Origin: Escherichia coli
Lineage (GTDB): Bacteria > Pseudomonadota > Gammaproteobacteria > Enterobacterales > Enterobacteriaceae
DNA length: 64,000 bases
NCBI RefSeq assembly: GCF_003018235.1
Contig: NZ_CP027438.1
Direction: 5' to 3' (one strand)
The translations under genes were made by a program, and so were the position numbers. The stretch's first letter is position 1, and each line of letters begins with the position of its first letter. Of the stretch, positions 36,869-39,207 are shown piece by piece. The notes beneath the pieces were generated by a model. The model had not been told where the DNA came from and ran no database searches. It was given only the letters and a program-made list of their open reading frames with translations.

Positions 36869-37845
36869 CCTGCTTTCTCCTCTCTCTGGTTTTCAGCCCC
36901 CATCATCTGTTGAGTTTCGGGAGCCGCGGTTTTGACGTTTTGCGGGGACCTGCCTTTTGTTCCCTCCGGTATTCACCATCACCTTTTTGAGAACCTTCGC
37001 CGCAAGGGGCATCACTGCCACGGCCGGAAACGACTGTCCGGGGGCAGACCGCAAAAGTTTTTGCCTGCTTTTGGGCAAAAAGTTTTGCGGGATGTACATT
37101 TCACCCCTGGACTGGCGGAGACGGTTGTGGCTGTATCAGCCCCCGGCGACAGGGGCTTAAACAGGTGAATGACACCGGACACAACAACGGACAGGGACCC
37201 GCCGCAACGACGTGAAGCGCGGTTTGCGAAACGGCGTTGCCCCTTACATCCCGGCGGCCTTTTGCCGGGATGCCAGGAGCGCAGGCCACGGCGCGACAGA
37301 GGCGGCGCGACCGGAACGGTCGCTGCAAGCCAGGGTTTCGCGTCAGGGATGGAAGCCCGCCAGGGCGGAGACAGCTTCGCTGGCTCCGTTCACGACAGCC
37401 CGCCCCGCCAGGGGGACGCCCGGAAAAGCCATAAACAGGAGAGGAACGGAAAGAAGAGGAAGAGGAAAAAGAAGAAGAACAATAACAAGCACGGTAACCA
37501 CAGAAAAATAACATCAGAAAAAAACATTCCGGGCACATCACAAACAGGAAGGGTAACGGGCGACGCGTCAGCGTGGCCCGCTTCCCTTCCGGCAGGCGTC
37601 AGCCTGCCAGGGGTTTTCGCGCGGGCTGACAGGCGGCCTCCACCGCCTGCCCCTGTATCACCTGTTTCTGCTGCCCTGAAGGATGTAGTGACCACCGAGG
37701 AAAACCGCCTGCTGATTCGCCACAAAATCGCAGATTTCATCAACAATCTGTGCGGTGGTGAGCGGTTTCTGTCCCATTTCACGACGCCACGCATTAATCA
37801 CGGCTTTGTAATTGCGCAGAATTTCGCGGGTTTCCGTGCTGATAT

Positions 37846-38268
37846 TCATGACATGTGCTCCCCGTCCAGCGCCTGTAACACAACGTTTATTGCTTCGCGT
37901 TCCTCCCTGACGAATGCGTCACCGTCGCCCCCGTTCTCACTCCCGACGGCATACAGGCGCTTCATTTCACTGCCTGCCAGCGCCATCACTTTTTCCAGCA
38001 TCACCGCCGGGACTGTCACCTGACGGCTGGCGCGCTTTTCCTCCATCAGTTCACGAACAACGTCGTGAACAATGCTGACATCCGCACCATGCTCAAAGGC
38101 ATCGTCCAGCCGCTGCATGACGGCTTCCAGCTCATCGTCTGTCAGACTCCAGTCCTGGGCTATGTGACGCACATCCCCACGTGTCAGCACCACGGCAAAA
38201 ACGCATTCACTGTCCGGCACGTCTGTATCCAGCACTTCGCGGATAATTTCTTTAACAGTACAGTACAT
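37846..38268 (-). CDS. hypothetical acidic protein
   Basis: 140-aa ORF; followed in tandem by a 63-aa ORF (37658..37849). Confidence 0.45.
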   Translation of the reverse strand: MYCTVKEIIREVLDTDVPDSECVFAVVLTRGDVRHIAQDWSLTDDELEAVMQRLDDAFEHGADVSIVHDVVRELMEEKRASRQVTVPAVMLEKVMALAGSEMKRLYAVGSENGGDGDAFVREEREAINVVLQALDGEHMS

Positions 38269-38314
38269 GTTCTCGTCTCCTTTACAGGGGCGGCATTGCC
38301 GCCCCGTCCGTTAA

Positions 38315-38740
38315 TCAGTCCAGTGCCGCGTAAATCGCGTTACATTCGGGGTGAAATTCGATGTGACGCCACAACTGCGCATCGCGCATCCGGTAAAGCT
38401 GGGTCAGTCCTGCATCCCCGCTGTCGTGGTACAACCACAACTGGCGGTTAATCACAAGGGAAGTCAGAATGATGCCTGCGGCATCGGCGCTGACCGTGCG
38501 GTCAAACCAGTTTTCACCGTTGACCATGTGGAAACGGTCGCCATCCGGCATCATGTAACCGCCACCGTCCGGCAGGCGGATGAAGTGCCAGAAGCCTCCC
38601 TGATATTCCGGCATCATTTTTTGCGCCAGCGCGTACACATACGCCTCGGCATACAGAAAATCGTTGCCAAACAGATACGGTAGAAAGGAGAGACGGTCGC
38701 ACTCTTCAACGTTCAGAGTGACAGGTTTCGCATACTGCAT
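38315..38740 (-). CDS. KlcA/ArdB-family antirestriction protein
   Basis: 141 aa; [10 protein letters not shown]...[20 protein letters not shown]...[11 protein letters not shown] pattern recalled from KlcA (DFLPTYFG...YWHYYALSDGGFYMAP...LSADAAGIVAT). Confidence 0.6.
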
Positions 38741-39207
38741 GATGTTTTCCTCCGTTGTTCACATATTCCGCGACACCGGGCGGTGCCGTGCCTCCATAAA
38801 AGCCGGGCGATAAGGCGGGGATGCACCGGGCGCAAGGGAAGCCGCAGCCTGACGCACACGGCTGGCGGGAGTTGGAGGGTGAGACCGCGAAATCTGAGCG
38901 GGTGAACGACCGGAAAATCACGGCAGACGGGAAGGAGGGACCGGGTGACCGCAGCGGCGAAGCGTACCCTTGCATCCCTGCCAGCCCGGCTAAGATGGAG
39001 GCACGGCACAGCCCGCACACGACACGGCGGCCACATAACTGAAAACCCACAAGGCCATGCCCTGCATGGCCGGGTAAAGCGGAGCCGGCGGCGACTTCCT
39101 TTGTGCTCTGTCCGGGGACCGGCAGGAAAAAGGCGGGGATTTTCCCCGCCATCATCATCCTTTGTCGGAAAAGAAACGGGCGGTTGCCCACCCGTCTCCG
39201 TCATACT

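Follow-up and report, generated by a model that had tools for sequence, protein, structure and literature searches.

Two GC-rich islands in the leading region of an F-like plasmid of Escherichia coli as probable single-strand promoter hairpins

Introduction

The 64-kb stretch of Escherichia coli DNA analysed here at its full length (contig NZ_CP027438.1; henceforth the window) is an F-like plasmid. The leading region of this plasmid carries ygeA, the anti-restriction gene klcA with its operon partners, and a DUF1281 gene, between which lie two GC-rich islands, namely island 1 (36900-37650), upstream of ygeA, and island 2 (38745-39205), upstream of klcA (Table 1). From position and composition, a first-pass annotation had suggested that these islands are single-strand promoter or initiation structures. 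Here we report that each contains an orthologue of a long hairpin described in the literature as a promoter on single-stranded DNA (ssDNA), and that a third GC-rich hairpin island lies at 40165-40420, beyond the coordinates of that annotation.

Elements of this type are already known from the literature, where class 1 dates back to 1997 and classes 2 and 3 to 2025-2026. For class 1 of F and ColIb-P9, sigma-70 RNA polymerase is known from the literature to initiate on the single strand only, with stimulation by SSB, the protein that binds single-stranded DNA, and the F class 1 transcripts can also prime complementary-strand synthesis (2026 preprint). The F copy Frpo1 drives ygeA-ygeB and is needed for early ygeA expression in transconjugants (PMC9849209). 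The hairpins upstream of klcA and ardA in pESBL are class 2 ssDNA promoters with start sites mapped by 5' rapid amplification of cDNA ends (5' RACE) (Wen et al. 2025, PMC12672017), and the F class 2 element ssp2, which another preprint names Frpo3 and gives a GC content of 68.6%, stalls complementary-strand synthesis until opened by UvrD (2026 preprint). Such hairpins switch on anti-restriction and establishment genes of F-like and IncI plasmids within minutes of entry, before the second strand is made, and this early expression of anti-restriction functions gives them a bearing on how resistance plasmids evade host defences. Two points alone may go beyond the published work, namely a core common to classes 2 and 3 and the breadth of its occurrence in Enterobacterales.

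Plasmid setting and transferred strand

The orientation of transfer is given by a nic-like motif of the origin of transfer (oriT), which was found with what we take to be the F nic sequence as query. Its location on the + strand makes this the transferred (T) strand, with the leading region extending rightwards from oriT. This strand call agrees with the alignment to F and with the traJ/FinP matches: an Rfam search places FinP and the traJ 5' untranslated region (UTR) at 33840-33949, and the F leading region aligns to 34004-40419 as three collinear blocks. From this collinearity, the two islands lie 2-4.5 kb into the leading region. The + strand is, hence, the strand that enters the recipient, 5' end first, and, as the leading genes ygeA, klcA and DUF1281 are on the - strand, the transferred strand is their template. 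Thus, the placement of the islands in the leading region beside a KlcA/ArdB-like gene, as first proposed, is upheld by klcA itself, the collinearity with F and the nic-like motif.

Composition and coding potential of the islands

The GC content of island 1 is 0.602 and that of island 2 is 0.633, compared with 0.443 for the whole window and 0.50-0.56 for the genes flanking the islands; a 200-nt profile peaks at 0.69 (37200-37399) and 0.665 (38800-38999). Each island is carried by at least 5000 plasmid records. The open reading frames (ORFs) within them overlap each other in several frames on both strands, and none has a Pfam match, while the neighbouring genes match Antirestrict, DUF1380 and DUF1281 in the same search. 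Homologues have these ORFs broken up among different frames or cut short by stop codons, whereas their klcA is intact. A 68-aa ORF labelled 'SSB' in one record (NZ_CP010136) shows substitution rates of 0.232/0.219/0.235 at the three codon positions, i.e., no bias, and is surrounded by many 1-2 nt indels. Of the 60 plasmid records listed, 58 have no annotated feature where island 2 matches. Thus, neither island has an ORF that stays open in relatives and also shows a coding pattern of substitution or a family match. Rfam yields seven matches in the window, none of them within 36500-40500, and no family reaches its gathering threshold in the islands. Hence, both the GC enrichment and the lack of a coherent ORF noted in the first-pass annotation hold up, and neither of the outcomes that it had named as counting against its suggestion, a conserved gene or a lack of stable hairpins, was found.

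The class 1 hairpin of island 1

Island 1 contains a long imperfect stem-loop on the T strand, upstream of a leading gene, with the start of ygeA on the - strand 46 nt from the hairpin base. The F ssiD/Frpo sequence, obtained from the supplementary table of Samuel et al. (2024), aligns to 36897-37246 at 95.7% over 351/351 nt; with F Frpo1 the hairpin has 96.8% identity, and with Frpo2 87.3%. This homology, together with the position and the form of the stem-loop, places it in class 1. The + strand of the entire island has a minimum free energy (MFE) of -204.8 kcal/mol, versus -148.7 +/- 7.4 for shuffled sequences (z -7.6). In an alignment of 15 homologues (the copy in the window, the two of F, nine taken from genomes of other species and three candidates from the literature), the structure is 82.4% paired, as opposed to 39-47% with the partners slid, and 21 pairs have changed on both sides. 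The RNAalifold consensus puts local hairpins in place of the basal stem, so that the basal pairing is less certain than that of the mid-stem.

The F copies Frpo/ssiD (Frpo1, ssp1a) and Frpo2 (ssp1b) have the same ygeA-upstream position, long hairpin and ~550-nt repeat unit as island 1. The distal part of this unit is common to Frpo1 and Frpo2, and parts of it are recognisable by eye in the published ColIb-P9 ssi and insect Frpo' sequences. With ssi1-3 of ColIb-P9, the IncI1 homologues of Frpo, island 1 has in common the apex, a -35-like CCCTGGAC box and the hairpin plan, at ~77% over ~110 nt; in contrast, their basal stem is not alignable with that of the F type and the 5'-arm TTGACG is absent. 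The comparison with Frpo and ssi sequences that had been recommended at the outset thus links island 1 to both the F and the IncI1 elements.

The candidate promoter in the 3' arm has its -35-like TGGACT in the stem, preceded by a 9-10-nt A/T-rich bulge. The T[G/A]GAC of this hexamer is kept in 14 of the 15 aligned homologues; F Frpo1 has the same letters, out of register. The spacer helix is 97.8% paired with 4 compensatory pairs, and the plan of a bulge, a -35-like hexamer in the stem, a 17-18-nt helix and an internal loop recurs in a short-apex variant (L045) and in ColIb-P9 ssi3. The -10 hexamer, TGTATC, is weak. Tentatively, transcription from this candidate would start opposite ~37000-37002 and give a leader of ~130 nt. 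On the - strand before ygeA, no sigma-70-like double-strand promoter came up in a promoter scan.

Other placements of the class 1 hexamers were rejected. TTGACG-17-TTTTGT, in the 5' arm at 36932, has a TTGAC that is invariant in the F type and absent from ColIb-P9, and its -10 is not conserved. In the apical TTGGGC-18-TACATT the -35 is not conserved, and the apex itself is replaced in short-apex variants, while the basal TTGCGA-15-TACATC has no conserved TTG.

The class 2 hairpin of island 2

Island 2 lies upstream of an operon whose gene order is the same as in F and pESBL. Its first gene matches Antirestrict with E = 1.1e-26 and is 98.6% identical to F klcA; the match of the DUF1380 gene, at E = 1.2e-4, does not reach the Pfam cut-off. 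Compared with pESBL, the identity of the island is 95.5% to the stretch before klcA and 93.2% to that before ardA; it is 81.8% to Frpo' 4 (Samuel et al.), and the island lies inside a 94.8% alignment with the klcA-upstream region of F. The F and pESBL class 2 elements (F ssp2 and Frpo3 being the same element, and Frpo' 4 a relative) have the same klcA-upstream location and high GC, and island 2 differs from the F copy by a few stem substitutions, e.g., one F G:C pair is G:T here. The + strand folds with z = -4.8 relative to shuffles. Homologues for testing covariation came from a motif scan of species genomes, the best 5000 PLSDB records being almost all >95% identical. Across 41 distinct arm pairs the pairing scheme is 75.7% paired, compared with 31-39% when slid, 25 pairs have changed on both sides, and 0/500 shuffles attain the covariation seen; positions within the -35 hexamer covary with the other arm. 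Thus, both islands fold as long hairpins far beyond shuffled controls, and covariation backs both stems.

The homology to the pESBL klcA and ardA hairpins, along with -35 and -10 hexamers oriented into the downstream anti-restriction gene, identifies the hairpin as class 2. Its -35 hexamer is paired within the stem. A 3x3 internal loop sets AAG, from the -10 hexamer, opposite AAA, and the 3' arm then continues with GGAGG and a CACGGC box. The template (5') arm has four extra bulged bases in the spacer, making it 19 nt versus 15. The predicted +1 is A39003, opposite template T38789, which would give a 49-nt leader to the klcA ATG. Here too, the scan returned no sigma-70-like double-strand promoter on the - strand, either in island 2 or upstream of klcA.

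Terminators and purine tract

The islands contain more than promoter hairpins. The three GC-rich hairpins right after the stop of the 63-aa gene form a putative terminator or insulator of the klcA operon, although the terminator scan made no call at 37547..37651. Island 2 in turn ends with two intrinsic-terminator-like hairpins past the DUF1281 stop. The reading of the islands as promoter structures therefore needs amending in that they are composite, each combining a promoter hairpin with terminators and spacer. The purine tract noted earlier is real: 37435-37495 is 87% purine and includes, at 37448-37479, 32 purines in a row, more than anywhere else in the 64 kb. The tract lies outside the Frpo repeat unit and not in the hairpin, is predicted to be unpaired in the MFE structure, and may keep the Frpo repeat apart from the terminator hairpins as a spacer.

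A third hairpin and a possible class 2/3 family

The third hairpin, upstream of the DUF1281 gene, matches at 96.2% identity the pESBL region that precedes the DUF1281/M.EcoGIX operon and that by synteny is the class 3 element of Wen and colleagues. Class 3 elsewhere drives a methylase, which is absent in the window. The class 3 hairpin has been described as unlike all others (Wen et al. 2025, PMC12672017); despite this published contrast, class 3 (the pESBL M.EcoGIX operon element and F ssp3) has a 39-nt core in common with class 2. This core, CTTG-N11-GCCCGGYTA-N3-T-N5-CACGGC, occurs twice in the window (38969 and 40288), which is not expected by chance, and three times in pESBL, upstream of klcA, ardA and DUF1281. 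We also found it in 54 loci of species-representative genomes, mostly of Pantoea, Erwinia, Enterobacter, Buttiauxella, Yersinia, Salmonella and Klebsiella; a few odd hosts among these are probably contamination. Where an ORF could be called, the downstream gene begins 1-70 nt (mostly 25-36 nt) from the extracted 5'-arm segment, and the nine downstream products tested include ArdA, KlcA-type antirestriction proteins and N6/N4 methylases, to which the window adds DUF1281.

Classes 2 and 3 may form a single family, in which a fixed 15-nt non-template spacer would face a 19-nt template spacer with a conserved purine bulge. It would come in two stem sizes, with an arm distance of ~120-133 nt or ~180-192 nt, and would extend over no fewer than 40 species assemblies of Enterobacterales, lying some tens of nucleotides before ArdA, KlcA, methylase or DUF1281 genes.

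Several loci in this set merit separate mention. In class 2-like copies upstream of ardA (L003, L015, L020, L023, L040 and others), the bases from the -10 to the start (e.g., TATAGTAGA) face a non-complementary GACACGAC, which implies a larger ready-made bubble of ~8-9 nt. An Alicyclobacillus plasmid (L014) and Raphidiopsis brookii (L034) have no more of the class 3 core than its 3' arm, which is the same as in F and joined to unrelated AT-rich sequence; these copies may be F-derived vector sequence in the assemblies. L004, L005 (Streptomyces morookaense), L006, L028, L037 and L038 (metagenome-assembled genomes from the gut) have enterobacterial leading-region hairpins with ArdA, methylase or KlcA genes and likely represent contamination or mis-binning.

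In the longest DUF1281 ORF (39208-40179), the first codon is a GTG at 40179 that precedes the predicted start of transcription (template T40172). ATG 40134, which gives the 308 aa annotated in pESBL, is the more likely start.

Rearrangements relative to F

F has two Frpo copies with ssb-yfjA-yfjB-psiB-psiA-flm between them, whereas the window has one, and this single class 1 copy is a chimera, its alleles being those of Frpo1 as far as 37190 and those of Frpo2 from 37196 on. Searches of the whole window for ssb, yfjA, yfjB (ParB), psiB and hok gave no match, psiA having had no separate search. The chimera and the absent ssb-psiB-hok segment fit recombination between two direct repeats, by which the segment could have been lost here or gained in F. 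Recombination between the F promoter repeats was anticipated by Couturier et al. (PMC9849209), and recombination between promoter repeats was observed earlier in an IncI plasmid. The ygeA-Frpo-63-aa-gene arrangement recurs in ~81 of the 5000 best-matching plasmid records and also in NZ_CP010136. Taken jointly, the balance tips slightly in favour of classes 2 and 3 being one family and, as a separate matter, of the chimeric Frpo marking a natural ssb-psiB-hok deletion.

At a second junction, 39156-39160, a hypothetical gene, a DNA methylase (the M.EcoGIX homologue), a DUF1380 gene and a 258-aa gene are absent relative to F and pESBL. With this deletion the class 3 hairpin would drive only DUF1281 here, and, its operon thus shortened, the DUF1281 gene runs directly into the island 2 terminators.

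These observations allow the plasmid to be described as one without ssb, psiB, hok/flm and a leading-region methylase. For annotation, the three islands can receive the labels of single-strand promoters of classes 1, 2 and 3, together with their terminators, and the spurious ORFs, 'SSB' included, can be removed.

Table 1. Coordinates of the features in and around the islands
Feature	Positions	Strand	Basis
nic-like motif of oriT, GTAGTGTGTGGTGCTTT	34737..34753	+	one match, 2 mismatches to the F nic sequence, 0 expected by chance
ygeA, 95 aa, first gene downstream of island 1	36581..36868	-	96.8% aa identity to F ygeA
ygeA leader with Shine-Dalgarno-like GGAG, between hairpin base and ygeA ATG	36869..36913	-	sequence reading
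Class 1 ssDNA promoter hairpin, Frpo/ssiD/ssp1 orthologue	36914..37232	+	117 pairs, terminal loop 37066-37073
Candidate class 1 promoter, 3' arm: TGGACT (37108-37113), 18-nt spacer, TGTATC (37132-37137) at internal loop	37108..37137	+	inference
Crossover interval, F Frpo1 allele (left) to F Frpo2 allele (right)	37190..37196		diagnostic sites
Distal part of class 1 repeat unit, small hairpins	37233..37442	+	both F repeats align up to 37442
Purine tract (pyrimidine-rich in mRNA sense)	37435..37495	+ (T strand)	composition
Three GC-rich hairpins right after 63-aa gene stop, the last followed by UGUUUGUG	37547..37651	-	-75.9 kcal/mol, z -4.5
klcA operon: klcA/ardB 38315-38740, DUF1380 gene 37846-38268, 63-aa gene 37658-37849	37658..38740	-	Pfam, F identity
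klcA leader with Shine-Dalgarno GGAGG	38741..38776	-	sequence reading
Class 2 ssDNA promoter hairpin, ssp2/Frpo3 orthologue	38777..39015	+	base is a 32-nt inverted repeat
Class 2 promoter core, 3' (non-template) arm: -35 TTGCAT (38970-38975), 15-nt spacer, -10 TAAGAT (38991-38996)	38970..39007	+	sequence reading
Two intrinsic-terminator-like hairpins (39172-39199, 39132-39150), U-rich run after each, past DUF1281 stop	39132..39199	-	terminator scan, folding
Deletion junction relative to F (L002 positions 1833-4337)	39156..39160		F alignment, gene comparison
DUF1281 gene, likely start ATG 40134 (308 aa, MPNWCS...)	39208..40134	-	Pfam; 927-nt coding sequence in pESBL
Third hairpin, class 3 (ssp3) orthologue: TTGCAT (40289-40294), 15-nt spacer, -10 TAACGT (40310-40315)	40165..40329	+	inverted repeat, duplex view

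Interpretation and alternatives

For the hairpins, homology, folding, covariation, the class 2/3 hexamer geometry and a constant short distance to anti-restriction genes are directly established. In light of these, the two islands are very probably intergenic control elements of the leading region, each pairing terminators of the upstream operon with a long hairpin promoter that is active only on the single-stranded T strand, as the first-pass annotation had surmised for promoter function. Promoter activity, single-strand specificity, priming and roadblock action would be extended to the window elements by analogy with their published orthologues.

On this model, the T strand would fold so that the non-template -35 and -10 come from its distal (3') arm and the template from its proximal (5') arm, with the -10 hexamer in a mismatched internal loop that would leave the promoter partly melted beforehand. 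The sigma-70 RNA polymerase would transcribe down the 5' arm, leave the hairpin (in island 2, after ~12 bp) and continue into the - strand gene. Island 1 would thereby drive ygeA and a damaged ygeB, and island 2 would drive klcA, the DUF1380 gene and the 63-aa gene. Synthesis of the complementary strand would abolish the hairpin and leave the hexamers pointing away from the genes, thus ending expression. In the single-strand origins (sso) of rolling-circle plasmids and ICEBs1, host RNA polymerase likewise makes a primer on folded ssDNA. Those elements do not give rise to mRNA for downstream genes, whereas the island hairpins would; no relation in sequence was seen, and no search aimed at one was made.

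Several points weigh against this interpretation. The evidence for transcription comes from the literature on orthologues and none from the present sequence analysis. The - strand of the islands folds almost as well as the + strand, and the counts of G.T versus A.C pairs are 44 versus 56 for classes 2 and 3, i.e., with no clear strand preference, while the class 1 count is biased by the way the structure was derived. With the - strand folding nearly equally and the pair counts uninformative, strand specificity rests on the orientation of the hexamers and on the literature. The non-template spacer of classes 2 and 3, at 15 nt, is short for sigma-70; we assume that the 4 extra bulged bases of the template arm offset this. 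For class 1, four hexamer placements were considered and only TGGACT-18-TGTATC fits the F-type, short-apex and ColIb-P9 copies, so that it is held tentatively. Finally, the model gives no function to the distal class 1 module (37233-37442) or to the purine tract.

The alternatives fare considerably worse. That the hairpins serve DNA replication only, as ssi priming sites or stall barriers and not as promoters, is very unlikely. It has in its favour that Frpo, isolated initially under the name ssiD, yields primer RNA in vitro (literature), that ssp1 priming and a UvrD-resolved ssp2 stall occur in vivo (2026 preprint), and that a different ssi, ssiE, lies near the islands at 35341-35529; however, RNA-seq and 5' RACE in pESBL detect starts at all six hairpins (PMC12672017), the class 2/3 family sits at a short, nearly constant distance before anti-restriction and methylase genes, and the replication roles are additional to the promoter role rather than substitutes for it. 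We give even less credence to a function as RNA, with the structures acting as 5' UTR regulators or small RNAs and not as folded DNA. Although strong structure is predicted on both strands of the islands and Rfam detects other RNA regulators around, FinP in the leading region and sok elsewhere in the window, none of its families reaches threshold in the islands, the promoter scan found no upstream double-strand promoter to make such an RNA, and the predicted class 2 start would have only ~12 nt of the stem transcribed, giving an RNA without the hairpin.

It is likewise scarcely probable that the islands encode real proteins, such as the 68-aa 'single-stranded DNA-binding protein' ORF (NZ_CP010136) or ORFs of 146 to 163 aa. 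ORFs of 68-163 aa do exist on the - strand, some records label hypothetical proteins or 'SSB' in the islands, and the 68-aa ORF is open in several homologues. Yet several frames are open simultaneously, as GC-rich sequence predicts, the longer ORFs are fragmented or carry stops in homologues, F included, most records leave them unannotated, and the absence of Pfam matches is joined, for the 68-aa ORF, by equal substitution across codon positions and frequent 1-2 nt indels. Nor do we see more than the slimmest chance that the islands are terminators plus repeated, recombination-prone GC-rich filler that does not act as a promoter in this plasmid. In their distal parts the islands do consist of terminator-like hairpins, and the class 1 repeat has clearly recombined here and in other plasmids; but the terminators cover only ~70-110 nt per island, whereas the long hairpins are kept with compensatory changes across genera and are 95-97% identical to experimentally active elements.

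Additional observations

Between gene X (a SLT transglycosylase) and ygeB, the ssiE copy is a 97.4% match to its F counterpart, another single-strand initiation sequence. At 35591-35646 the same interval has an inverted repeat whose 27-nt arms match perfectly and lie 2 nt apart (ATGATAATATAAGTAAAGCCCCGAAAA and its complement), probably a two-way terminator. The ygeB gene itself (DUF932; 35646-36463, - strand) looks like a pseudogene, with residues 1-32 and 31-273 aligning in different frames and a stop at 36042-36044 according to the ORF list; a sequencing error is possible. Away from the leading region, long perfect inverted repeats of 1251 nt and 771 nt at 52550-61003 surround ~5 kb in what looks like a composite transposon with insertion sequence (IS) copies.

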